Source: Methanococcus maripaludis
GTDB lineage: Archaea > AGJL01 > Methanococci > Methanococcales > Methanococcaceae
Assembly (NCBI RefSeq): GCF_002945325.1
Contig: NZ_CP026606.1
Coordinates: 1,440,001-1,472,000 of the forward strand
Length of the DNA stretch: 32,000 nt
Direction: 5' to 3'
Below are positions 8,314 to 28,096 of this stretch, in pieces; within the stretch, counting starts at the first letter, position 1; each line of letters opens with the position of its first letter. Position numbers and translations under genes: made by a program. The notes under the pieces are model-generated. The model did not search any database and was not told the origin of the DNA. It saw only the letters and a list, made by a program, of their open reading frames with translations.

Positions 8314-9978
8314 TTATTCGATAGTTATTTCAAATCCAACTACTGGATGTTCGAGTTCGAAGTTTAAAATAACTTCGGGGTGTATTTCTCCAAAGAATCC
8401 AACTTCTTTTCCACTTTTAAGTATTTTTGCACATCTTCCAGCTATGAATGCTGGGTGTTCATAGTTTTCAAATTCAAAACCTTCAAAAAACTCCCTTAGG
8501 AGTGCTTCAGTTGAGCTTTTTATTTCGTTAAAGTTCGTTAAAGGGTGTGTTATTGCACCCGCAATTTTCTTGATATTTTTACACTTTGTATCAGTTTCAG
8601 TATCTTCTTCATCGATAACTACACAGTCACCAACTTCAAATATTTTTTGAGGAAGAGCATTGTGCTTGTTAATGTAAAGCGTTTCCAAAAGAAGCGGTAA
8701 AATCGAAGTTCTAAGGACCCTATGTTCAATTGAAGCAGGTTTTAAAACTTCGATATAATCTTTTTCATCCACTTTTAAATTCATCTTTTCAAACAACGTG
8801 TCTTGATTTGAAAGTGTTAAATTCATAACTTCGTAGAATCCAAGTCCAATCATTAAATCAGACATTGCACTACATTTTTTCTCAACAGGATCTTTTGAGC
8901 CGGTAGTTGCAACCGAGGGTAATTTTCCTTCGAATTTCTCATATCCATAGTTTATAGCAATTTCTTCTTTCAAATCAACGTTATGCAAGATGTCATTTCT
9001 GTATGCAGGAATTTTTACAATCAAATTTCCATCTTCATAAAGTGCATCCATTCCTGATTTTTTAACAGCCTGAATTATTTCTCCAGGATTTAAATTTAGT
9101 CCTAATTTTTTATTAATTGATTCAACGGAAATTATTCTTGATTTTGGAGTCAAATCTGGATATTTTTTCCCGTTAACATCTACTGAAACAATGGTTCCGC
9201 GTCTTTCTGCAAGTGCACAGACGATAATGTTTAGTGTTTCTTCAACCGCTTCTTTTTCAGTTCCGGTAATGTCAATAAGTAAATTTTTAGATGTTGGGGT
9301 TACTTTTGTTAATGTTCCATTGATTATTGGAGGCATTGAAAGAACTTCGCCATTTACATCGACAATAATTGGGAATTTATCGTCTTGAATTAAATGGGCG
9401 TATTTTATTCCTTTTTCGTGTTTTTCAATAATTTCTCTAGGTGTCATTTCTTCGTTTTCATAACCTAATGGAACAAATTTAATTTCATCCCCTTTGATTT
9501 CTTTGTAAGTAAATGGAGCTTTTACTTTATCGAAGTCGTGAATTCCAATTGCAAGTTTCTTTCTATCTCTTCCAATTGCCCAGTGTAATTTTTCCTGAAG
9601 GTTTATCATGCTTTCAAGGACAAGGTCATCCATTAAAACATTTTTAACAAGTGCAAATGCGACATAAGGTCTTGTTTCATTTTCTTCAACAGTTACTTTA
9701 ATGTCTGAATCAATCACTTCAAATTCTTGGATTCCTGTAGTAATTCCCATAAATCCTCTAAAACCTCTTGCAAGGCCTTCAACACTTAAATAATCTGGCC
9801 TATCAGGATTTATTGAAAACTGCACCATGTTCTGTTTTTTCCCGTTTTTATCGACTTCTTCGAATATTTCTTCTACTTCAACACCCATCATTGGGAATCT
9901 ATCTTCTATTAATTTGTCCGAAAGCGAAATATTGCTCAATCGTTCCAAATCTACTTTATTCACGTTAATTGTAGGCAC
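8314..9978 (-). CDS. pheT: Phenylalanine--tRNA ligase beta subunit (archaeal type)
   Basis: The length and sequence (PTINVNKVDLERL..., B3/4 and B5 regions, C-terminal catalytic-like fold) are characteristic. GTG 9978 is preferred (GGGTGA-N5-GTG) over GTG 9987, which lies inside that SD. Confidence 0.93.
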   Translation of the reverse strand: MPTINVNKVDLERLSNISLSDKLIEDRFPMMGVEVEEIFEEVDKNGKKQNMVQFSINPDRPDYLSVEGLARGFRGFMGITTGIQEFEVIDSDIKVTVEENETRPYVAFALVKNVLMDDLVLESMINLQEKLHWAIGRDRKKLAIGIHDFDKVKAPFTYKEIKGDEIKFVPLGYENEEMTPREIIEKHEKGIKYAHLIQDDKFPIIVDVNGEVLSMPPIINGTLTKVTPTSKNLLIDITGTEKEAVEETLNIIVCALAERRGTIVSVDVNGKKYPDLTPKSRIISVESINKKLGLNLNPGEIIQAVKKSGMDALYEDGNLIVKIPAYRNDILHNVDLKEEIAINYGYEKFEGKLPSVATTGSKDPVEKKCSAMSDLMIGLGFYEVMNLTLSNQDTLFEKMNLKVDEKDYIEVLKPASIEHRVLRTSILPLLLETLYINKHNALPQKIFEVGDCVVIDEEDTETDTKCKNIKKIAGAITHPLTNFNEIKSSTEALLREFFEGFEFENYEHPAFIAGRCAKILKSGKEVGFFGEIHPEVILNFELEHPVVGFEITIE

Positions 9979-10018
9979 AGTATTCACCCATATTTTTAAT
10001 TTAAACGTATATTCTAAA

Positions 10019-11068
10019 TTATTCCATTATCATTTTTTTGTTATTGTATTCGACTAAAACTGTTTCTTTTTTAGTTTCGCCATTTACTTCAACGCTGTCT
10101 TCGATTTTTCCAATTACAAATGCAGGAATGTTGTGGTGGTTTGATATTTCAATTATTTTTTCTGCATCTTCCTTTTCAACAATTACACAAAATCCAATGC
10201 CCATATTGAATGTTTTAAACATTTCTTCATCTGCTACATTTCCTAAATTCTGCATTTCTTTAAATATTGGAAGAATTTCGGGTAATTCATCGATTTTGTA
10301 ACATACTTCTTTGTTTAATCTTTTTAATTTTCTAAAACCGCCGCCAGTAATGTGTGCGAGTCCTTTTACATTCACTTGTTTAATCATTTCTAAAACTGGT
10401 TTCACGTAAATTTTTGTAGGGGTTAAAAGCTCTTCAGCAACTGTTTTTCCGTGTGATAATTTGCTGTTAACGTTGAGGTTTGCGATATCGAAAAATACTT
10501 TTCTTGCAAGTGATAAACCGTTACTGTGAATTCCACTGCTTCTTAAACCAACGATTAAATCACCAGGTTTTACTTCTTTTCCAGATACGATTTCATCTTT
10601 TTTAACAACTGCAAGAACAGTTCCTGCCAAATCTACTCCTTTAATCATGTTTGGAAGTGATGCAGTTTCTCCACCGATTAAATTGATGTTTGATTCTTTT
10701 ATTCCGTCATTCAATCCTTTTCCAATTTGTGATGCAATGTCTTCTGTGATATCTTCAACAGCCATGTAGTCAACGAGAGCAACTGGTTCTGCTCCAATAC
10801 AAATTGCATCGTTTACGTTCATTGCAATCATGTCAATTGGAACGGTGTCGAATTTGTTTGCCATTTCCGCAACAACCATTTTACTTCCAACACCATCAGT
10901 ACAGAGCACTAAATAATAATCTCCAAATTCAATAGCTCCTGCATAGTGTCCTTTTAAATCAGCAGGTTTTATTGCATCAGTTCGTTCAAATTTAATTTGT
11001 GAAGCAAGCGCCCTTATGACCTTGTCTTCTTTATAAATATCCACACCAGCGTCTTTGTAAGTTACCAA
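10019..11068 (-). CDS. purM: Phosphoribosylformylglycinamidine cyclo-ligase (AIR synthetase)
   Basis: VTYKDAGVDI N-terminus, DGVGSK and GGETA motifs. TTG start with AGGTGG 4 nt upstream. Confidence 0.95.
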   Translation of the reverse strand: MVTYKDAGVDIYKEDKVIRALASQIKFERTDAIKPADLKGHYAGAIEFGDYYLVLCTDGVGSKMVVAEMANKFDTVPIDMIAMNVNDAICIGAEPVALVDYMAVEDITEDIASQIGKGLNDGIKESNINLIGGETASLPNMIKGVDLAGTVLAVVKKDEIVSGKEVKPGDLIVGLRSSGIHSNGLSLARKVFFDIANLNVNSKLSHGKTVAEELLTPTKIYVKPVLEMIKQVNVKGLAHITGGGFRKLKRLNKEVCYKIDELPEILPIFKEMQNLGNVADEEMFKTFNMGIGFCVIVEKEDAEKIIEISNHHNIPAFVIGKIEDSVEVNGETKKETVLVEYNNKKMIME

Positions 11069-19057: not shown

Positions 19058-19260
19058 AATTTCATCTCATGTGAGTCATATACAACATACACCTCATTTC
19101 TATATATATGATTCTTCTAAATTCAAATGATAAGTTATATATACAGATGTTAGGTTTGCTAACGTTATCTTTATATTAATAAAGGATAATTATATTTTAA
19201 ATTGAAAAATTTAATTGAAAAATGTCAATTTTAAATAAATATATTATTTGTGTGGTTTTT
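19058..19260. promoter_or_regulatory. Divergent promoter region between the fwd operon and the E1-like gene
   Basis: A 203-nt AT-rich spacer with TATA-like runs at 19101-19109 (tatatatat, about 48 nt from the fwd-operon ATG), 19135-19143 and 19188-19199. Confidence 0.5.
19198..19223. repeat. Tandem 13-nt direct repeat TAAATTGAAAAAT / TTAATTGAAAAAT
   Basis: The two adjacent copies are 12/13 identical by hand alignment and lie inside the divergent promoter region. Confidence 0.5.
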
Positions 19261-19875
19261 ATGGATATTAAAGCACTAGAAGATAAATTAAAGCCAAAAG
19301 GAACTGTTTCTATTATTGGATGTGGAAGGTTAGGGATTAGAATTGCAATGGATCTTTTGGAAGTTCACAGGGGCGGATTTGAAAAGATCCAGATTTTTGA
19401 TGCAGCAAGGATTGATCAAAATGATATAGTCCACAGAAAACATGGTGCAAAACTTGGAGAATATAAAATAAATTTTTTAAAAGAATTTTTCCCTGAAAAA
19501 ATTGAAGCATTTTTTGAAGATGTCAATGAAGAAAATATAAAAAAAATAACTGGCGATGTTGTTTTAATTGTTTTTGCAGGTGGAAATACTCTTCCAATTA
19601 GGAAAAAAATTGTAGACTACTGTAATAATACTAAAAAAGTTGCAATTGGAACTAATGGGGTATTTGGATTTGATCCTGCAATTAAAATTGGAGATGCGAA
19701 GACTGAAAAAGGCCCTGTAGAATTTTTAAAAGTGGAAAGTGAAGGGCATTTGGTAGTTGGCACGGGTAAATTTATAAAAGATATGGAACCAATAACACCA
19801 TACACTTTAGATGAGATGGCAAAACACCTCGTTATTGAATCTTTGAAAATCAAAAAAGAATTACTGAAAAACTAA
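19261..19875 (+). CDS. Short ThiF/E1-like Rossmann-fold protein (adenylyltransferase-like), function unknown
   Basis: IIGCGRLGIRIA (GxGxxG) is followed by IFDAARIDQNDIVHR, matching the ThiF/MoeB D-x-D-x-V-x2-sN-L-x-R pattern. ATG 19261 is preferred over 19222. It has no CxxC zinc motifs. Confidence 0.5.
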   Translation: MDIKALEDKLKPKGTVSIIGCGRLGIRIAMDLLEVHRGGFEKIQIFDAARIDQNDIVHRKHGAKLGEYKINFLKEFFPEKIEAFFEDVNEENIKKITGDVVLIVFAGGNTLPIRKKIVDYCNNTKKVAIGTNGVFGFDPAIKIGDAKTEKGPVEFLKVESEGHLVVGTGKFIKDMEPITPYTLDEMAKHLVIESLKIKKELLKN

Positions 19876-19927
19876 TAACCTAATAAAACAATGATTCAGG
19901 TTAAAATCACAAAGTTCTGGTGTTTTT

Positions 19928-20845
19928 ATGGATATAATTGAGAGAATAAACAAATTGAAAAACGAGAAAAACGCAGTAATTTTGGCACACAACTACCAGC
20001 CAGAAGAAATCCAAAAAATTGCAGATATTATTGGAGATTCACTAGAACTCTGCATTGCTGCAAGAGATACCGATGCAGATGTAATCGTATTCTGCGGTGT
20101 AGATTTCATGGCAGAAACGGCAAAAGTATTAAACAGTGGGAAAAAAGTACTTATTCCCGAAATTATTGAAACAGACTGCCCAATGGCACACCAACTTCCC
20201 CCAGAAGTGATACTTGACGCAAAAAAAGAGTATCCTGATGCAAAAGTTGTAATTTATGTAAATACACTTGCTTCTGCAAAAGCACTGGCTGACGCAACAT
20301 GTACTTCTGCAAATGCTGATAGGGTTGTGAATTCTTTCGAAGAAAACGAAGTATTATTTGGTCCAGACAATAATTTGGGTTATTTTGTATCAAAAAGGTC
20401 AAATAAAAAAATTATTCCAATGCCTGAGGGCGGACACTGCTATGTTCACAAAATGTTTACAATTGATGATGCAAAAGCAGTAAAAGAAAAGTATCCAAAT
20501 GCAGAACTTTTAATACACCCTGAAAGTGACCCAAAATTACAGGAAAGTGCTGACTACGTGATGAGTACTGGTGGAATGGTAAAACACGTTTTAAATTCAG
20601 AATGCAGCGAATTTATTATCGGAACAGAATGCGACATGATATCCCGGCTTAAAATAGAATTGGAAAAAGTGGGGAAATCAAAAAAACTAATTCCTTTAAG
20701 AACTGACGCAATCTGCAAATCGATGAAAAACATAACTTTAGAAAAAATAGAACAATGTCTTTTGGAAGAAAAACATGAAATAACGCTTGATGAAAAAATA
20801 ATTGAAAATGCAAGAAAAGCAATTGAAAGAATGCTTTCAATTTAA
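19928..20845 (+). CDS. nadA: Quinolinate synthase
   Basis: NAVILAHNYQ, CGVDFMAETAK and other NadA signatures, with the three-domain length. Confidence 0.95.
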   Translation: MDIIERINKLKNEKNAVILAHNYQPEEIQKIADIIGDSLELCIAARDTDADVIVFCGVDFMAETAKVLNSGKKVLIPEIIETDCPMAHQLPPEVILDAKKEYPDAKVVIYVNTLASAKALADATCTSANADRVVNSFEENEVLFGPDNNLGYFVSKRSNKKIIPMPEGGHCYVHKMFTIDDAKAVKEKYPNAELLIHPESDPKLQESADYVMSTGGMVKHVLNSECSEFIIGTECDMISRLKIELEKVGKSKKLIPLRTDAICKSMKNITLEKIEQCLLEEKHEITLDEKIIENARKAIERMLSI

Positions 20846-20855
20846 TTTTTTTATT

Positions 20856-21215
20856 TTATTCTTCTTTTACGTAGTATCTAACCATTTCTTCGGTTTCATC
20901 GAATATTTCAGCTTTGTAATACTCTACATCGCCGTTAGTATCGACTTTTACATATACATTTTCTACATTTTTGTATTTTTCACCAGTTTGAGCAACCCTC
21001 GGGGTAGCCGCTTGTGAAAATGCGTCCCCTTCTCTTGTGTATTCAAATATTATGTTTTGACCTTCAACAGTGTATCCTTGGTATTCTACGCCGCCCATAC
21101 TAAAGGTAACTCCTAAAAATACGTACTTTTCAGGAGTATCTGGCCCAAATGAGAAATATATTGCGCTCGCAAGAATTAAAAGCGCAATTACTGGGAGTAT
21201 ATACTTAGAACTCAT
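20856..21215 (-). CDS. Small protein with an N-terminal membrane anchor or signal peptide, translationally coupled to SepCysS
   Basis: Hydrophobic YILPVIALLILASAIYF is followed by a beta-rich ectodomain. ATG 21215 is preceded by AGGTGA-N5, where TGA is the SepCysS stop codon. Confidence 0.55.
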   Translation of the reverse strand: MSSKYILPVIALLILASAIYFSFGPDTPEKYVFLGVTFSMGGVEYQGYTVEGQNIIFEYTREGDAFSQAATPRVAQTGEKYKNVENVYVKVDTNGDVEYYKAEIFDETEEMVRYYVKEE

Positions 21216-21220
21216 TAAAT

Positions 21221-22363
21221 TCACCTTAACTCGTTTATAATAGATTTCATGCTATTTATCACGTAGTCAACTTGAGTATTGGTTAATCCATAAACACTCA
21301 TTTTGAATTCTTTTGTAACTCCTCTTCTGATTCCGCCGATTCCTCTTTTCTTCAATTCTTCGTAGAAGAAAAATCCTCTTCGTTTATCTTTTTCTGCAAT
21401 TTCATCTAAAATCGGGGTTTCAAATCTTATGATATCGTGGTTTCTTGGTCTTTCCCCAATCTGTTTAAATCCTAATGGTTCAAGCTCATTAACCACTTTT
21501 CTTGTTTTTTCAAGTTCTAAATCCCAATTTTTAACTCTTTCAATCAGGTGTTCAAAGCTTGCCATCAAACTTAAAATTGGAATTCCTCGGCTAGTGCAAC
21601 CAAGCATCTGGAGTTCTTTTAATACATTTACTTTTGAAGTTTCAAGCACTTCATCTTCATATTTTTTATTTATTGAAAGAAGACCGCATGGGCCAGATGC
21701 AGCCATACTTTTGTGTCCTGATGCTGCAATAAAGTCCACATTTAATTTTTTTCCATCAATTGGCATTCTTCCCGCAGAATATGCACAGTTTAATAAAAAT
21801 GGATATCCTTTAGATTTTGCAATTTTTCCAACCTTTTCAACATCTGCAACGTTTCCGTAATTTCCATCAACGTGTGTTAAAAGGATTAATCCGATATTTT
21901 TTTTAGAATCTTCGAGCATGTCAATTTTTTCAGCATAACTTTCAGGAATTACTCTAAATGTCGGGTATTCTTCAATTTCAGTTCTTTCGTAGTTTAATTT
22001 AGCTCTTTCAAGTGCTACATATGAAGTATAGTGGGCATTTCCATCCAAAACTACGTAATCGCCTTCTTTACAGATGGAATTCATAACAGCGTATTTACTT
22101 TCCCTTGCACCGTGTGTAGGTCTTGTTATGTCCATTCCTAAAAATTTGGACATGTCTTCTAAAAATTCGTTTATAGGGGGAGTTTCGATTTGGTCGAGTC
22201 TTCCTGAACAGTAATCGCAGACACTGTACCCATCCCAGTATTCATAGATTATTTTCTTAGATTCAGTTGGTAGGATTCCTCCTCTCTGAATTGGATTTAA
22301 GTTAATCATTTCTCTTTCGAGATTTCTAGTAATATTTTTGTATTTATCAGTATTTATCTCCAT
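21221..22363 (-). CDS. pscS: O-phospho-L-seryl-tRNA(Cys):Cys-tRNA(Cys) synthase (SepCysS), PLP enzyme
   Basis: N-terminal ...NLNPIQRGGILP...WDGYSVCDYCSGRLDQI and the PLP-lysine context ASGHKSMAASGPCG are characteristic of SepCysS. GGTGAT SD. Confidence 0.88.
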   Translation of the reverse strand: MEINTDKYKNITRNLEREMINLNPIQRGGILPTESKKIIYEYWDGYSVCDYCSGRLDQIETPPINEFLEDMSKFLGMDITRPTHGARESKYAVMNSICKEGDYVVLDGNAHYTSYVALERAKLNYERTEIEEYPTFRVIPESYAEKIDMLEDSKKNIGLILLTHVDGNYGNVADVEKVGKIAKSKGYPFLLNCAYSAGRMPIDGKKLNVDFIAASGHKSMAASGPCGLLSINKKYEDEVLETSKVNVLKELQMLGCTSRGIPILSLMASFEHLIERVKNWDLELEKTRKVVNELEPLGFKQIGERPRNHDIIRFETPILDEIAEKDKRRGFFFYEELKKRGIGGIRRGVTKEFKMSVYGLTNTQVDYVINSMKSIINELR

Positions 22364-22390
22364 AAAATCACCAATTCTCGCGTAATTTAA

Positions 22391-23158
22391 TTATTTAAAA
22401 TTGAGGTCGAGTACAACCTTTTCAAACCCTATTTTTTTAAGTTCTGTATTTATTATTTCTATCGAATCATTATCAAATATTTTTTTTGATTCTTTTTTAG
22501 TCATCTCGATAATTGCAATATTTTCAAGGTATCGAACCCTTAAATAACTTTCAATATGGAAGTTTGATTTTATAAACGCTTCTGCTAAATTCGATTTAGC
22601 CATATTTTCTTTAGAAATTGGCGCTGATAAAATACGGGTTGCCATACAGGTATCTTTTTTTGGAATATCAATTTTCAAGTATTTTGATAATTCAAAAACA
22701 TCATTTTTACTGAATTTTAAATTAGAAAGGGGGGAAATTATATTTTCTTCATTAAAAGCTTTTATTCCCGGCCTATCTTCAAATATATCATCGTAAATTG
22801 TTCCATCGACAATGATATCATAGTTCAATTCATTTTTTATTCTTTTAAGTTCTTCTGCAATTCTTTTTTTACAGTTGTAGCATCTGTTTTTTAAGTCTTT
22901 TGAAATGATTTCATTTAAATAATCTATTTTCATGGTTTTTTGAGGAATGTTGTATTTTTTAGCACGATTTTCCGCTTTTTTTATTACATTTTCAGAAAAA
23001 AATCCGTTATCAATCGTTACCGCAAGTGTTTGTGCATTATCGCTTGCAATTTTTGAAATAAGTGTGCTGTCAACACCCCCAGAATATGCAACAACCACTT
23101 TTTTGTTTTTGAAAAACTCAAGTAACGAGTTATATTTTTCAAGCAAACCTTTTTTCAT
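22391..23158 (-). CDS. LarE-like (TIGR00268-type) PP-loop ATP-dependent sulfur transferase, three-Cys variant
   Basis: PP-loop VAYSGGVDST, RCYNCKK (CxxC), and DTCMATRI at the position of the LarE catalytic Cys. ATG 23158 is preceded by GGTGA-N5, where TGA is the upstream stop. Confidence 0.75.
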   Translation of the reverse strand: MKKGLLEKYNSLLEFFKNKKVVVAYSGGVDSTLISKIASDNAQTLAVTIDNGFFSENVIKKAENRAKKYNIPQKTMKIDYLNEIISKDLKNRCYNCKKRIAEELKRIKNELNYDIIVDGTIYDDIFEDRPGIKAFNEENIISPLSNLKFSKNDVFELSKYLKIDIPKKDTCMATRILSAPISKENMAKSNLAEAFIKSNFHIESYLRVRYLENIAIIEMTKKESKKIFDNDSIEIINTELKKIGFEKVVLDLNFK

Positions 23159-23163
23159 GATTT

Positions 23164-24147
23164 TCACCGCTCAAAACCCATTTCTTCAATCATTTTTAAA
23201 TCAGACTGGATATTTTGCCCATTTGTAGTTAAATAGTTTCCAATCATTAAACCATCAAGTGCAAGAAGTGAATATTTCTGCATATCTTTTAAAACATGTT
23301 CTCTTCCACCACAAAGCCGAATTACTTTATCTGGAAGTGCAATTCTTGCAATACATATCGATTTTAATGCATCACGGGAATTAATTCGAGATATATCTCC
23401 AGAATATATTCTATCATGAATTTTGGTACCGTAAATTGGATTTAGTAAATTTAGAGCAACACTATCAACATCAAGTTTTTTTAACTCCATAAATAAATCA
23501 ATCCTATCTTCAATAGATTCACCCATTCCAAAAATTCCGCCGCTGCACATCTCAAGCCCTATTTTTTTAGCTTCGAGAATTACTTTTACTTTTTCGCTGT
23601 AATCGTGGCTTGTACAGATATTTTTAAAGTAGTTTTCAGATGTTTCAAGGTTATTGTGGATTCTTACGTTTCTTTCTTTTAAAGCTTTTAATTTATCTTT
23701 ATTTAAAAGCCCTAATGAAACGCAAACCTTTAATTTCGTTTTATTTTGAATTTCTTCAATCGATTCAATAATATTTTCAAATTCTAAATCTGTAACTGTT
23801 TTTCCACTAACAACAATCGAAAAGCGGTTTGAATATTTTTCAACCGATTTAGCATTTTTTAAAATCTCTTCTTTTGATTTTAATCCGTAAGTTTCTATTT
23901 TTGAACGGTTATGTTTTGATTGAGAGCAGAATATGCAGTTTTCAGGACAGATTCCTGATTTGGCATTTATAATTGAGCACAAATCAATATTATCCTTATT
24001 AAATAATTTTTTTAAGTTATATGATATATCTAGCAAATCATTTAAGTTTAAATTCCACAAATCAATTAAATCGTTTCTATTTAGTTTTTCAGAAGCTGAT
24101 TTTTCGTAAATTTCTAAAGAATCAGAATTTAATTTAATTTCCTTCAA
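23164..24147 (-). CDS. Biotin-synthase-like radical SAM protein
   Basis: SGICPENCIFCSQS (CxxxCxxC, compare BioB GACPEDCKYCPQS). BioB-like blocks are KLKVCVSLG, HNNLETS, GLEMCSGGIFGMGES and IRLCGGRE. TTG start with AGGTGG-N5. Confidence 0.8.
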   Translation of the reverse strand: MKEIKLNSDSLEIYEKSASEKLNRNDLIDLWNLNLNDLLDISYNLKKLFNKDNIDLCSIINAKSGICPENCIFCSQSKHNRSKIETYGLKSKEEILKNAKSVEKYSNRFSIVVSGKTVTDLEFENIIESIEEIQNKTKLKVCVSLGLLNKDKLKALKERNVRIHNNLETSENYFKNICTSHDYSEKVKVILEAKKIGLEMCSGGIFGMGESIEDRIDLFMELKKLDVDSVALNLLNPIYGTKIHDRIYSGDISRINSRDALKSICIARIALPDKVIRLCGGREHVLKDMQKYSLLALDGLMIGNYLTTNGQNIQSDLKMIEEMGFER

Positions 24148-24224
24148 AAAACCACCTTTATGGCGAATAAGTTTCTAAAATAATTTTAAAAATAGTATTT
24201 GTTTTTACATTTTAAATTTAATGA

Positions 24225-24425
24225 TCATCTATTTTCTTCAGATCCATACGGTTCATCATTTGAATTATCGTATTTTTCTTCGTTTTCTTCTTCATATTCT
24301 TCGTTTAAAACGGCGGCCTGAACAGTTTCGTTTGACGGATCAGTGTAGTCGGCACATCCTGTGAGGATTATGCAGAATATTATTGTAGAAATTAAAATTA
24401 TACCTTTGATTGCTCTTGAATTCAT
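24225..24425 (-). CDS. Small lipoprotein with a highly acidic tail (hypothetical)
   Basis: Signal peptide plus lipobox ILTGC, followed by an E/D/N-rich tail. A TGGTGT SD-like motif lies 5 nt before the ATG, 30 nt after the UPF0280 stop. Confidence 0.45.
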   Translation of the reverse strand: MNSRAIKGIILISTIIFCIILTGCADYTDPSNETVQAAVLNEEYEEENEEKYDNSNDEPYGSEENR

Positions 24426-24455
24426 GATTTACACCAATTATATTATAATTTTACA

Positions 24456-25199
24456 TCAAACCATTTCAAAAACATTTCCTAAAACTTCTTTTTTATCCGT
24501 TTTTATCAATTGAGGTATTTTTCCAATTTTTCCAGCGTGTTCTCCAAATACTACAAAAACACCATCAATTTTTGAAATAGTTTCAGCTTTTTCAAGGCAA
24601 TTATTTATTGCATCAACAGCATTTCCAACTGCAAAATTTCCAATCGAAGTTGCAACAGCATCGGCAATAATCGCAGATTTTGAAAAAACTGTAACTGAAT
24701 CGGCATTTCCAAGGCTTACGGAGTGTCCGACAGTTCCTGAGGAAGTACAGATTCCATATCCATTTTTCATTTTTTCTTTTTTTAGTTTAAATCCTAAATT
24801 TCCAGAAAGTGATGAATTTCCTGCATAAAGCCCGACAGTCGTATCCATTTCGCATTTTAAACAGATATCTCCACCATTTTCAGAAATTGCATTTTTACAG
24901 TCATTTTCAATTAAATTTTCAACAATTAATTGGCTGAATGTTCCTGCAACTGCTGCCATTGGTCCAACATCTGCATTAAATCCAGCTTCAGCCATTAATT
25001 TTATAATTTCTGGTGCATTATCTGGCACTTCAACGGGAGAATAACTAGTTAAAAATATGGGATTTCTTAAAATATAATTTTCAAGGTTTAATCTTTCATT
25101 AATAATTGTATTTTTCGCCATTTTAAAAAATTTGGGATTATCTACTTTTAAAAGAATATTTGTTTCTTTAATGGATATTTTTTCTTGAAAAAATTTCAT
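24456..25199 (-). CDS. UPF0280 family protein (ApbE-superfamily-like), function unknown
   Basis: GPMAAVAG, ENGGD and CTSSGTVGHSVSLGNADSV blocks resemble the UPF0280/ApbE-like family of methanogens. Confidence 0.65.
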   Translation of the reverse strand: MKFFQEKISIKETNILLKVDNPKFFKMAKNTIINERLNLENYILRNPIFLTSYSPVEVPDNAPEIIKLMAEAGFNADVGPMAAVAGTFSQLIVENLIENDCKNAISENGGDICLKCEMDTTVGLYAGNSSLSGNLGFKLKKEKMKNGYGICTSSGTVGHSVSLGNADSVTVFSKSAIIADAVATSIGNFAVGNAVDAINNCLEKAETISKIDGVFVVFGEHAGKIGKIPQLIKTDKKEVLGNVFEMV

Positions 25200-25236
25200 A
25201 GTATTCCTTTTTAAAATTAAAATAAATTAGAATGAT

Positions 25237-25662
25237 TTAGTGTTGTTCTACCCAGTAGGAACCATCTTTTGAAAATTCCTTTTTCCATATTGGAACTTCT
25301 TCTTTTAAGCTGTCGATCAAATATTCACAGGCTAAAAATGCTTCTTTTCTGTGTTTTGCTCCAACAACTATCAATACAATATTATCCCCTACTTTTAGCG
25401 TTCCAATCCTGTGAATCAATGTAGCATCGATAATGTTAAACTTTTCAATCGCCCTATTTTTTAATTCTTCAAGTTTTTTTGAAGCCATCTGTTCGTAGCA
25501 TTCAAATTCAATAAATTCAGCCTCTTTTTCAACGCCTTTATTGTAACCTACGTTTCTAACAACCCCTACAAAATTTACAAGTCCACCTATTTCAGGATGA
25601 TTTTTTAAAAGGGCTTTAGTTTCAACGTCAATGTTAAAATCTTCATTAGACACTCTAATCAT
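25237..25662 (-). CDS. moaE: Molybdopterin synthase catalytic subunit
   Basis: GGLVNFVGVVR, IVLIVVGAKHRKEAF and PIWKKE are MoaE signatures. The start overlaps the moeB end by 8 nt (GGTGG-N5-ATG). Confidence 0.9.
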   Translation of the reverse strand: MIRVSNEDFNIDVETKALLKNHPEIGGLVNFVGVVRNVGYNKGVEKEAEFIEFECYEQMASKKLEELKNRAIEKFNIIDATLIHRIGTLKVGDNIVLIVVGAKHRKEAFLACEYLIDSLKEEVPIWKKEFSKDGSYWVEQH

Positions 25663-26374
25663 TTAAACCACCGCAAATTTTACATTCAGGATTTTTCTTT
25701 ATATTAAACGTGAAATAGTCATTTGTTCGCATATTTATTGAAAGCAATTTATTTTTTAAAGGAGTTCCAATTCCAGTTATTAATTTTATCGCTTCACTCG
25801 CCTGAATTGAACCAATTACTCCAGGGGTTACTCCAAGTACCGGAAAAGACTTATTTTTTTCTTCATCTTTTAATTTAAAAATACATTCAATACATGGAGT
25901 TTTATTTGGAATTATCGTTGTAACCTGGCCTCTTAAATCTTCAATTGCGCCATGAACGAGGGGGATTTTATATTTATTTGAAAATCTATTTAATAAATAT
26001 CTAGCTTTAAAATTATCAAGACAGTCAATAATAACATCTGAATTTTTGATGTGATTTTCGTTTACTTTTTCAGGATAAATTTCAATGTTTATCTCTGAAT
26101 TAATACTTTCTAACTTTTCTTTTGCAGAAATAACCTTTTTTATTCCAATGTCCTTTTCAAAATGCAAGATCTGTCTGTTTAAATTTGAAAGTTCAACTTC
26201 CTGATAATCAACTAATTTTAAGTTTCCAACTCCTGCGGCAGCTAGATATTGTGAAACAACGGTTCCAAGGCCCCCAACACCGACAACAGTTACAGTTGCA
26301 TCTAGCAGTTTTTTTTGGCCAGTTTCTCCGAAATCATCCATTAAAATCTGTCTTTTGTATCTTTCCAAGTTCAT
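25655..26374 (-). CDS. moeB: MoeB/ThiF/UbaA-type E1-like adenylyltransferase
   Basis: RYKRQI, VVGVGGLGTVVSQYLAAAGVG, DYQEVELSNLNRQ, and two CxxC pairs (CIEC and CKIC). Confidence 0.85.
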   Translation of the reverse strand: MNLERYKRQILMDDFGETGQKKLLDATVTVVGVGGLGTVVSQYLAAAGVGNLKLVDYQEVELSNLNRQILHFEKDIGIKKVISAKEKLESINSEINIEIYPEKVNENHIKNSDVIIDCLDNFKARYLLNRFSNKYKIPLVHGAIEDLRGQVTTIIPNKTPCIECIFKLKDEEKNKSFPVLGVTPGVIGSIQASEAIKLITGIGTPLKNKLLSINMRTNDYFTFNIKKNPECKICGGLND

Positions 26375-26453
26375 AGTATCACAGTTATTTAAACAACTAT
26401 ATGCTTTAAGTTATAATAATATTGATGGTATGATTTTGGAGTGTGGTGTAAAA

Positions 26454-27155
26454 ATGTCTAAAATGGTTACAAAAGTTAAAACGTATTCTTGGAGCGCAGA
26501 AAAAGGGCTTTTAGAAAAAGAAGACACGATAGTAACTGAGGATTTTTATGAATTATACCTTGACGGAAAATTAATTGAAACAATGGTCGTATCTCCTGAA
26601 AATATTGAAGAATTGGGTATTGGATACACTATTTCAGAAGGATACATCGCTCCAGAAAGTTTTTCAGAAATTAAGATAGATGATAAAAAGATATATGTAA
26701 ACTCAAAAGAACTGGAAAAAGTAGATACAAAAAAAGGTAACGTAAATTTAAAATTGAGTACAATTAAAAAAATCATGGAAACCATGCCTACTCTTTCAGA
26801 CACCTGGAAGATAACCGGTGGAGTTCACTGGGCAGCACTCTTTGATTTTTCAGGAAACAAAATAGTTTATTTTGAAGATATCGGAAGGCACAATGCAGTA
26901 GATAAGGTAGTTGGATACGCTGTTTTAAACAATATTGATTTAAACAATTGCGTACTTGCATCGAGTGGAAGACAGCCAACAGCAATGGTTAAAAAGGTAG
27001 TAAATTCTAAAATTCCCGTAATAATTACGAAATCCCCGTCAACAGATAAGGGGGTAATTTTGGCGAAAGAAAATGATATTTTATTAATCGGTTTTGCAAG
27101 AATTGACCGATTTACCGTATATCATGGAGTAGAAAAGATAGATTTTAAATCATAA
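26454..27155 (+). CDS. fdhD: FdhD-family formate dehydrogenase / W-Mo-bisPGD enzyme accessory (sulfur-carrier) protein
   Basis: GGVHWAALFD, EDIGRHNAVDKV, SSGRQPTAMVKK and LLIGFAR blocks. ATG 26454 is preferred (GGAGTGTGGTG upstream) over the 33-codon longer ORF that would overlap moeB. Confidence 0.85.
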   Translation: MSKMVTKVKTYSWSAEKGLLEKEDTIVTEDFYELYLDGKLIETMVVSPENIEELGIGYTISEGYIAPESFSEIKIDDKKIYVNSKELEKVDTKKGNVNLKLSTIKKIMETMPTLSDTWKITGGVHWAALFDFSGNKIVYFEDIGRHNAVDKVVGYAVLNNIDLNNCVLASSGRQPTAMVKKVVNSKIPVIITKSPSTDKGVILAKENDILLIGFARIDRFTVYHGVEKIDFKS

Positions 27156-27205
27156 TGTTTATTTTTTCTAACGTAATCTAATTAATTTAAAGATATGTGG
27201 GTTAT

Positions 27206-28096
27206 ATGGATAATAATCTTGAATTTAGACCTTGGACGCAAAATAAGCGAAATTTAAAGCATTTAAATCAGTTAAAAGAAGATATTTTAAACAATTTTGA
27301 AGATTTGAATTTAAAAGATGAAAAAATAATTGTAATGCTCAGTGGTGGAAAAGATAGTGCCGTTTCACTTGCAATTGCAAAGGAACTTGGATTAAACGTT
27401 CATTTGTGTGTTCATTTTGTCCACAAATGGAGTTGGGATATTTCAACAAACGAAGCAAAAAAATTAGCAGATCGATTTAATGTACCGATAATATTTCCAG
27501 ATATTACTGAAGAACTGGCCAAAAAAACACAGGGTGCCAAAGGAAAAAGCATCTGCCGAATTTGTAAAACTATAATGAAAGCTCGAATGATAGATATTGC
27601 GAAAGTCGAGAATGCAAAAATAATAATGACTGGGGAAACTGCACTTGAAAAAATTGCAGGCCCTGTTTTTCAATATATCCGTGAAAATAATGCAAATGTT
27701 AAAAGAAAAGATGAATTTGAACTCTACAAAAAAATGGAGATTACAAAGGTTCCAAAAAGATACAAAATTCATTTTTTTAGGCCTTTAATTCGTGTTGGAC
27801 ATTTTGATGTATTTAATCTTCAAAAACACTACAAGATAGATATAAAACGTGTAAGCGAAGCCGGAAATAAAATCGGATACTGGAGAGAGGGGTGCTGTCT
27901 TCAGTACTGTACTCCAACTTGCGAACTGACAACTGAATTATTTGATGATTTATATAAAATAAATAAAAAAGCAACAGAAATTGCGCGAGATTGTGGATTT
28001 AGGGCATCAATTACCCTTCCAGCAAAAGAAATAACTGTAATTCCAGAAGAAGAAAAAAACTTTAAAAAGATCGAAGAACTTTTAAAAGAGATTTAA
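27206..28096 (+). CDS. PP-loop ATPase with a TtcA/TtuA/Ncs6-like Cys arrangement (putative thiolation enzyme)
   Basis: PP-loop VMLSGGKDSA, then CRICK about 70 residues later, then the GCCLQYCTPTC cluster about 110 residues after that. ATG 27206 is preferred over GTG 27197. Confidence 0.6.
   Translation: MDNNLEFRPWTQNKRNLKHLNQLKEDILNNFEDLNLKDEKIIVMLSGGKDSAVSLAIAKELGLNVHLCVHFVHKWSWDISTNEAKKLADRFNVPIIFPDITEELAKKTQGAKGKSICRICKTIMKARMIDIAKVENAKIIMTGETALEKIAGPVFQYIRENNANVKRKDEFELYKKMEITKVPKRYKIHFFRPLIRVGHFDVFNLQKHYKIDIKRVSEAGNKIGYWREGCCLQYCTPTCELTTELFDDLYKINKKATEIARDCGFRASITLPAKEITVIPEEEKNFKKIEELLKEI

Follow-up and report, generated by a model that had tools for sequence, protein, structure and literature searches.

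In a 32,000-nucleotide (nt) stretch of the Methanococcus maripaludis genome (contig NZ_CP026606.1, positions 1,440,001 to 1,472,000; the whole stretch is called the window, and its first letter is position 1), we analysed a cluster of four minus-strand genes equivalent to MMP1238-MMP1241 of strain S2. This operon probably bundles three independent, sulfide-dependent sulfur-incorporating enzymes, namely a biotin synthase (BioB), a sulfur insertase (LarE) and a Cys-tRNA synthase (SepCysS), with one unrelated small protein that would be exported, and it appears to be served by two promoters. An earlier note on this DNA had read the four products as a shared sulfur relay feeding SepCysS. The four open reading frames (ORFs) are separated by spacers of 5, 27 and 5 nt and are laid out as follows.

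24147-23164, minus strand: bioB ORF (MMP1238 equivalent), 327 amino acids (aa); TTG start behind AAGGTGG, TGA stop at 23166-23164
23168-23156, minus strand: bioB/larE junction; GGTGA at 23168-23164 holding the bioB TGA, then AAATC (5 nt) and ATG
23158-22391, minus strand: larE ORF (MMP1239 equivalent), 255 aa; ATG at 23158-23156
22390-22364, minus strand: larE-sepCysS spacer, 27 nt
22363-21221, minus strand: sepCysS ORF (MMP1240 equivalent), 380 aa; TGA stop at 21223-21221
21225-21213, minus strand: sepCysS/small-gene junction; GGTGA at 21225-21221 holding the TGA, then ATTTA (5 nt) and ATG
21215-20856, minus strand: small gene (MMP1241 equivalent), 119 aa; ATG at 21215-21213

Identities of the four gene products

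The product of the first gene scored 339 bits against the bioB equivalog model TIGR00433 (cut-off 225), carried the radical S-adenosylmethionine (SAM) motif CPENCIFC and matched both PF04055 and PF06968 (BATS domain). Its closest solved relatives were 8VDW (E 2e-71) and 8VCW (5e-57), with E. coli 1R30 at 1e-35. Alignments to these three structures placed a Cys at the position of E. coli S43 and a Ser at that of C97 (DLCSIINAKSG, RFSIVVSG), the swap that defines Type II BioB with an auxiliary [4Fe-5S] cluster (PMC10813225); furthermore, the Type II residues, including the equivalents of C128 and C188, were invariant in six Methanococcales BioBs. Judged by its sequence, the MMP1238 equivalent is a Type II biotin synthase. 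An HcgA/HmdB identity of this radical SAM protein was rejected, as it scored 68 bits against a cut-off of 321, compared with the 339 bits of the bioB model. Archaeal Type II BioBs have failed to complement E. coli (PMC10813225). A further cysteine, C279 in RLCGGRE, was invariant in the six LarE-adjacent Methanococcales BioBs and lies three residues before the Arg aligned to E. coli R260; it may serve as a further ligand to the auxiliary cluster.

The second gene product reached 183 bits against the LarE equivalog TIGR00268 (cut-off 150) and contained the PP-loop SGGVDS. It differed from the structures 8CNZ, 8CP3 and 8CP4 of the Protein Data Bank (PDB) at about 13 of 255 positions (approximately 95% identity over the full length) and was approximately 90% identical to LarE of strain C5. 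Exactly three cysteines were present, a CxxC plus one (C93, C96 and C171), and all three were invariant in 16 LarE sequences, while SGGVDS, RCxxC, C171 and R175 were invariant across the archaeal and bacterial LarE in our alignment. The MMP1239 equivalent was accordingly assigned as a PP-loop, ATP-dependent sulfur insertase of the [4Fe-4S], three-Cys LarE class. A structure paper on M. maripaludis LarE was reportedly published by Zecchin et al. in 2024. The M. maripaludis enzyme has previously been isolated as a dimer and treated as a [4Fe-4S] protein (PMC8961635). Neither larB nor larC was found in the window or in any Methanococcales locus examined, and metagenome-derived LarB- and LarC-like queries matched nothing in the window or in the archaeal loci examined. 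LarC (UPF0272) homologues are, as we assume, annotated in Methanococcus.

The third product scored 574 bits against TIGR02539 (cut-off 365) and matched PDB 3WKR and 5X6B, both M. jannaschii structures, at E 6e-183. Lys218, which binds pyridoxal phosphate, and C49, C52 and C256 were invariant in the SepCysS alignment. These features identify the MMP1240 equivalent as an O-phosphoseryl-tRNA:Cys-tRNA synthase, a canonical SepCysS, and mmp1240 has been reported as SepCysS (PMC5688128).

The small protein matched no Pfam or NCBIfam family. It was 100% identical to an M. maripaludis entry of NCBI, and its homologues comprised seven clusters, all from the M. maripaludis group, together with an M. vannielii copy at 56% identity. 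The sequence begins with a hydrophobic helix that carries an ASA-type motif and continues as an acidic all-beta domain; the AlphaFold2 model placed the helix at residues 6-22, followed by seven strands, at low confidence (mean predicted local distance difference test 59.6). Since the N terminus, MSSKYILPVIALLILASA/IYF, resembles a signal peptide or signal anchor, the protein is probably exported or externally anchored, with its domain outside the cell. Between strains, the small gene was the least conserved of the cluster (82-83% nt identity). In an M. vannielii-like locus (L087:7945-7990), GGTGA-N5-ATG follows the SepCysS TGA, but the reading frame opened by that ATG closes after 5 codons, and homology to the small protein continues from ATG 7987 in a different frame. 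A 1-nt frameshift appears to have removed most of the hydrophobic stretch at the N terminus.

The four identities given in the earlier note, which had listed a BioB-type radical SAM enzyme, a three-Cys Fe-S LarE, SepCysS and an anchored small protein, were borne out, and the N-terminal hydrophobic anchor that it described was confirmed. Its gene coordinates, its spacers and the two GGTGA-N5-ATG junctions with the TGA inside were likewise reproduced when the minus strand was read.

Gene junctions and transcription

The same note had seen in the two 5-nt junctions a stereotyped design, and this part did not stand. The pattern GGTGANNNNNATG occurred twice in the 32 kb window, only at these junctions; in shuffled sequence, however, its mean was 0.75 and 17 of 100 shuffles contained at least two, so that the count by itself is unremarkable. 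When the 30 nt before every likely gene were listed, GGTGA or GGTGG stood 4-7 nt ahead of the start in about 14 of 37 window genes; it is the ordinary Shine-Dalgarno (SD) site of this genome. A stop inside the SD site therefore arises from very short spacers combined with a normal SD site and needs no special design. An in-frame GTG overlaps the stop at each junction (GTGA), making the exact start codons ambiguous; at the first, this alternative start at 23167 overlaps the bioB stop.

The first junction also differed in other organisms. Strain C5 and Methanococcus sp. CF had CGATGATAAxCATG, in which GGTGA has become GATGA, leaving no SD site, and the annotated start and stop overlap in ATGA; their second junction kept GGTGA at a spacing of 4 nt. 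In M. vannielii, junction 1 was TAA-T-ATG and junction 2 was TGA-GGTGA-N5-ATG. Methanothermococcus and M. aeolicus had ATG...TAA overlaps at junction 1 (11 nt in M. aeolicus), and the bioB/larE junction of Methanotorris was a 17-nt spacer carrying its own SD site. Tight coupling is thus conserved across strains and species, whereas the particular junction architecture is not.

Transcription was examined in the published data for strain S2 (Zhang et al. 2023, Nucleic Acids Research, PMC10450193, Dataset S1). The window genes matched MMP1232-MMP1243 one for one, in the order PP-loop protein, FdhD, ThiF, MoaE, MMP1236, MMP1237, bioB, hypothetical, SepCysS, hypothetical, nadA and ThiF-type. Dataset S1 lists "MMP1238 MMP1241" as a single operon, which the paper does not discuss, and gives MMP1234-1237 and MMP1243-1242 as separate operons (PMC10450193). 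It further flags an internal transcription start site (TSS), "ioTSS", on the MMP1240 row, and the wild-type mean values, in fragments per kilobase per million (FPKM), were 25.9 for bioB, 23.4 for larE, 230.7 for SepCysS and 145.2 for the small gene (PMC10450193). SepCysS mRNA was thus approximately 10-fold more abundant than bioB and larE mRNA. The internal start together with this rise makes the end of larE and the 27-nt spacer a candidate internal promoter of sepCysS. SepCysS and the small gene are transcribed mainly from the internal start, and the operon consists of two coupled pairs, not of a stoichiometric quartet. The main text of a preprint on barcoded transposon sequencing (RB-TnSeq) in M. 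maripaludis (bioRxiv 2024.03.05.583561) made no gene-level statement on MMP1238-1241. Two elements upstream of coding sequences are placed as follows.

24148-24224, minus strand: spacer upstream of bioB, 77 nt, with AT-rich TATA-like runs and an AAGGTGG SD site; operon boundary in S2
22364-22400, minus strand: larE 3' end plus the 27-nt spacer, with conserved TTTTAAATAATTAAAT...GCGAGAA...GGTGA; candidate internal promoter or leader of sepCysS

The 77-nt spacer, the probable primary promoter of the operon, was 100% identical in C5 and 94.7% identical in Methanococcus sp. CF, compared with approximately 83-93% for flanking coding DNA, a degree of conservation that points to a regulatory element in addition to a minimal promoter. 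No RNA family of Rfam was detected anywhere in the window, the 77-nt spacer included. The 27-nt spacer was 100% identical in C5, and the element TTTAAATAAT...GCGAGAA...GGTGA before sepCysS was recognisable in M. vannielii. Both spacers were conserved between strains at least as well as coding DNA.

The other biotin genes bioW, bioF and bioD are MMP1575-1573 in the S2 dataset, away from MMP1238, with similarly low FPKM; bioA was not found there by name. Upon depletion of aCPSF1 in S2, bioW, bioF and bioD rose approximately 2- to 3.5-fold and bioB and larE approximately 3-fold, and SepCysS stayed flat. The sole other S2 gene annotated "bioB" is MMP0126, which shares its operon with flpA, a fibrillarin homologue. 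As we take an flpA-linked position to be that of HcgA next to hmd, MMP0126 is most likely HcgA rather than a second biotin synthase.

We propose that a promoter in the 77-nt spacer would drive a low-abundance bioB-larE message, on which larE translation would be coupled to bioB termination by termination-reinitiation, giving similar, small amounts of both proteins, as expected of cofactor-biosynthesis enzymes. At the larE 3' end, a second start of approximately 10-fold greater strength would drive sepCysS and the small gene, likewise translationally coupled. Each enzyme would most likely obtain sulfide in its own way. In BioB and LarE, sulfide would bind the open iron of a [4Fe-4S] cluster, which is the auxiliary cluster in BioB (giving [4Fe-5S]) and the three-Cys cluster in LarE. 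SepCysS would rely on its conserved cysteines and on helpers from other loci, namely SepCysE and possibly the COG2122 protein described below.

Distribution of the linkage and neighbouring genes

The conservation of the cluster was examined by a SepCysS profile scan with one genome per species, which yielded 80 loci, of which 18 belong to Methanococcales and 62 to Methanobacteriaceae. A locus was counted as informative when 2.5 kb or more of upstream sequence was present (62 in total; 14 Methanococcales and 48 Methanobacteriaceae), and exact-protein look-ups added further organisms. BioB-LarE-SepCysS linkage was found in 2 of the 62 informative loci, both from Methanothermococcus (2 of 14 in Methanococcales), and in none of the 48 from Methanobacteriaceae. 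The recurrent SepCysS neighbours in the latter family, read by eye, were GAPDH-, PHP-phosphoesterase- and GyrI-like, none of them sulfur-related, and among the loci scanned no SepCysS neighbour was conserved across orders. The following arrangements were seen.

M. vannielii, M. maripaludis C5 and Methanococcus sp. CF: all eight genes kept in the same arrangement, the full four-gene cluster included
M. okinawensis IH1: bioB-larE-sepCysS, then an unrelated gene; small gene absent
Methanothermococcus sp. Ax23 and one metagenome-assembled genome: bioB-larE-sepCysS without the small gene
M. aeolicus: bioB-larE only, with an 11-nt overlap
Methanotorris igneus: ThiF-MoaE-ApbE-like-bioB-larE, then a convergent eRF1
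Methanocaldococcus sp. 16A: larE alone, ahead of the same eRF1 as in Methanotorris igneus
M. voltae: larE alone; sepCysS elsewhere, directly after purM-pheT (L081:2892-7200)

The bioB-larE pair is therefore the ancient core that has been conserved. Only some Methanococcaceae have sepCysS attached to it, and the small gene is found only in the M. maripaludis/M. vannielii group. In evolutionary terms, sepCysS would have arrived behind the pair in the Methanococcus/Methanothermococcus lineage, and the small gene would have been gained in the M. maripaludis/M. vannielii group alone. In the window, purM (10019-11068) and pheT (8314-9987) stand 11 kb from sepCysS, so that, compared with M. voltae, this region has been rearranged within the genus.

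Two further observations concern the SepCysS loci themselves. Calls from Logan on one locus (L084), a 382-aa SepCysS and a 376-aa BioB, were rejected as artefacts, since the DNA is 100% identical to the window and the calls read through TGA. This locus is the same DNA as window positions 11215-32000, for which the Logan calls also give a truncated LarE of 180 aa; evidently an alternative genetic code was applied to an AT-rich archaeon, and clusters such as P0001 have artefactual ends. In addition, two single-cell Methanothermococcus assemblies each carried two SepCysS loci on different contigs (L002/L003 and L007/L008) at 69% identity to the query, which could be gene duplication or mixed assemblies.

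LarE neighbourhoods were then surveyed by a profile scan of metagenomes, which gave 80 diverse loci (26-38% identity, 0.4 Mb). Neighbours were LarC-like in 14, LarB-like in 12, NifS/IscS-like in 5 and AIRS-domain proteins in 5, the LarC-, LarB- and NifS/IscS-like labels being a reading of representative sequences and not a family scan. The LarB and LarC neighbours agree with the LarE neighbourhood statistics of PMC13082051. In Altiarchaeales-like or other archaeal loci (L093:5774-6550 and L094:5820-7229), LarE homologues adjoin genes for AIRS-domain (PurM/HypE/SelD-like) proteins, not larB or larC, and AIRS-domain neighbours likewise occur at metagenome loci L095, L096, L098, L099 and L101.

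The window around the cluster is unusually rich in genes for sulfur and Fe-S handling, over 9 kb from 19222 to 28096. Besides the four-gene operon, this stretch holds NadA, MoaE, MoeB/ThiF and the following.

19222-19875: ThiF-like gene
24225-24425: 66-aa ORF (MMP1237), between the COG2122 gene and bioB, with a lipobox-like LTGC after a hydrophobic N terminus and an acidic tail
24456-25199, minus strand: UPF0280/COG2122 ApbE-like gene (MMP1236 equivalent); NF003321 (PRK04334) 425 bits, PDB 2O34 at E 7e-27
26451-27155: FdhD
27197-28096: PP-loop protein of 299 aa (MMP1232), weakly similar to TtuA, LarE and ThiI

The MMP1237 ORF, 47% identical over 45 aa in M. vannielii and expressed in S2, encodes a probable small lipoprotein. 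The COG2122 gene lies on the strand of the cluster, 1.3 kb upstream of bioB and 2.1 kb upstream of SepCysS, in the separate operon MMP1234-1237, and COG2122 was within 7 kb of SepCysS at only one other locus (L004). Rauch and Perona are said to have published on MA1715 in 2016. Proteins of the COG2122/MA1715 family have been proposed to traffic sulfur to SepCysS and COG1900 (PMC5764234, PMC12068725). In an unrelated organism (L116:14-2590), a COG2122/UPF0280 gene, a 108-aa ORF, LarE and a SufS-type cysteine desulfurase stand in a row on one strand, which links this sulfur-trafficking family to LarE.

Competing explanations and comparison with known systems

Several observations weigh against three independent sulfide chemistries. 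bioB lies directly upstream of larE, from an 11-nt overlap to a 17-nt gap, in M. maripaludis, M. vannielii, M. aeolicus, Methanothermococcus and Methanotorris, that is, in four genera; retention this tight exceeds the expectation under neutral drift and could reflect a direct functional link. Furthermore, 2 of the 80 metagenome LarE loci had BioB in the same apparent operon, against a rough chance expectation of about 0.1 for 0.4 Mb. One (L107:238-4687) comprises LarE, a ThiI/MnmA-like PP-loop protein, a sulfide-dependent Thi4, an unknown 272-aa protein and BioB, all overlapping; the other (L172:203-3019) comprises BioB, a PP-loop protein 53% identical to that of L107, and LarE. Their GC contents are 46% and 58%, respectively; the BioB of L172 is Type II, and that of L107 has Cys at both positions. 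The excess is small and the two loci may share ancestry, so that it is suggestive. In the literature, the sulfide source of Type II BioB was left unidentified after a failed search for helper genes, and LarE was named as an analogue of its [4Fe-5S] cluster (PMC10813225). On biochemical grounds, a relay to BioB or SepCysS thus keeps some probability. Moreover, the native substrate of LarE here, P2CMN of the nickel-pincer nucleotide (NPN) pathway, is assumed, and the RNA data come from strain S2, not from the strain of the window.

Taken together, the bioB-larE observations could mean that the [4Fe-4S] LarE reloads or gates sulfide on the BioB [4Fe-5S] cluster, or that both draw on a shared sulfide or cluster supply, with SepCysS and the small gene as later passengers. 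In addition to the tight pair, the metagenome operons and the hint in PMC10813225, the near 1:1 mRNA ratio in S2 (25.9 versus 23.4 FPKM) and the Type II class of all six LarE-adjacent Methanococcales BioBs speak for such a partnership. We nevertheless regard it as unlikely. LarE performs an ATP-dependent adenylation of a substrate carboxylate and keeps the catalytic motifs for it, and its sequence gave no hint of a protein-to-protein donor; LarE stands away from BioB in Methanocaldococcus and M. voltae, and its usual neighbours are LarC-like (14 of 80) and LarB-like (12 of 80); a survey of Type II BioB neighbourhoods showed no enriched sulfur gene (PMC10813225); these organisms grow in millimolar sulfide, from which free HS- could load the cluster directly; and L107 and L172, alike in architecture, may represent one evolutionary event. 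That LarE is specifically the helper sought for Type II BioB, providing or replenishing its fifth sulfide, or acts with a second, non-NPN substrate in biotin-related sulfur chemistry, we hold to be quite improbable. A different possibility, to which we also give only a small chance, is that the gene order is an accident of a compact genome, with read-through lacking adaptive co-regulation and tight junctions reflecting compaction. Short spacers and SD-in-stop junctions are indeed common here (moeB and moaE overlap by 8 nt), the position of SepCysS varies freely among Methanococcales and the junction architecture differs between strains; however, the bioB-larE order has been kept in four genera despite extensive rearrangement nearby, metagenome BioB and LarE cluster independently, together with sulfide-dependent enzymes such as Thi4 and a ThiI/MnmA-like protein, and both promoter-bearing spacers are strongly conserved.

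The relay of the earlier note, a stoichiometric device for sulfide activation or Fe-S-based transfer, anchored to the membrane by the small protein and feeding both SepCysS and a radical SAM reaction forming a C-S bond, appears very improbable to us. Its single transcript was upheld by the S2 operon map, two junctions are translationally coupled, sulfide, not cysteine, is the sulfur source of M. maripaludis (cited in PMC12584684 and bioRxiv 2024.03.05.583561), and the window is rich in sulfur handlers (FdhD, the PP-loop protein, MoeB, MoaE and COG2122). Its fixed stoichiometry, however, does not agree with an internal TSS at MMP1240 and a 10-fold step in expression between larE and sepCysS. 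Linkage to SepCysS, expected in all SepCysS-encoding archaea, did not extend beyond part of one family and was missing from M. voltae and M. aeolicus, which is essentially the narrow distribution that the note itself had named as speaking against the relay; and no SepCysS neighbour is kept across orders. The supposed anchor is restricted to one species group, is probably exported and apparently carries an N-terminal frameshift in M. vannielii. BioB and LarE each have an established and different job; for BioB, which the note had made a relay part, the equivalog cut-off was passed, bioW, bioF and bioD lie elsewhere and the other "bioB" is most likely HcgA. The shared relay feeding SepCysS thus disagrees with the expression data, with the distribution of the linkage and with the properties of the small protein. 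The note had also passed over the COG2122 gene just upstream, whose product is the better published candidate for the sulfur supply of SepCysS.

A true relay encoded by one operon would have been of value for the question of how sulfide reaches SepCysS and Type II BioB in organisms without a cysteine desulfurase. Within the cluster, comparative evidence favours a functional link only for the bioB-larE pair, which offers a cheaply testable idea for the sulfide donor of Type II BioB. The components and the operon are already in the literature, namely the Type II BioB class, the solved M. maripaludis LarE and SepCysS MMP1240; the order-wide bioB-larE coupling, with its echo in two metagenome operons, may have gone unnoted there and represents a modest lead, not a finding.

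Compared with known systems, the three enzymes of the operon are close to characterised relatives. LarE shares the PP-loop SGGxDS and CxxC...C with Thermotoga maritima LarE (PMC9283937) and with M. maripaludis 8CNZ, 8CP3 and 8CP4, and its third Cys aligns with the sacrificial Cys176 of L. plantarum LarE. Unlike most archaeal and bacterial LarE, that of L. plantarum included, the Methanococcaceae proteins end in ...LDLNFK and lack the C-terminal G[YF]R[ST]GSMN, and, unlike the larE genes adjacent to larB or larC, their genes stand behind bioB. SepCysS is canonical when set against the system in which its partners, known or proposed, are SepRS, SepCysE (MMP1217) and COG2122/MA1715; a COG2122 gene is nearby, in a separate operon, whereas the genes for SepRS and SepCysE are absent from the window. 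BioB shares CxxxCxxC, the BATS domain, Cys at S43, Ser at C97 and the C128 and C188 equivalents with the Type II enzymes 8VDW and 8VCW (PMC10813225), and the Methanococcales BioBs differ from the solved Type I and Type II enzymes in the extra invariant Cys of RLCGGRE, where the latter have Ala or Ser. Finally, the cluster, although from another M. maripaludis strain, has the same gene order and products as the S2 operon MMP1238-MMP1241, and the same flanks: nadA and the ThiF-type gene (MMP1242/1243) on one side, and ThiF, MoaE, MMP1236 and MMP1237 on the other.

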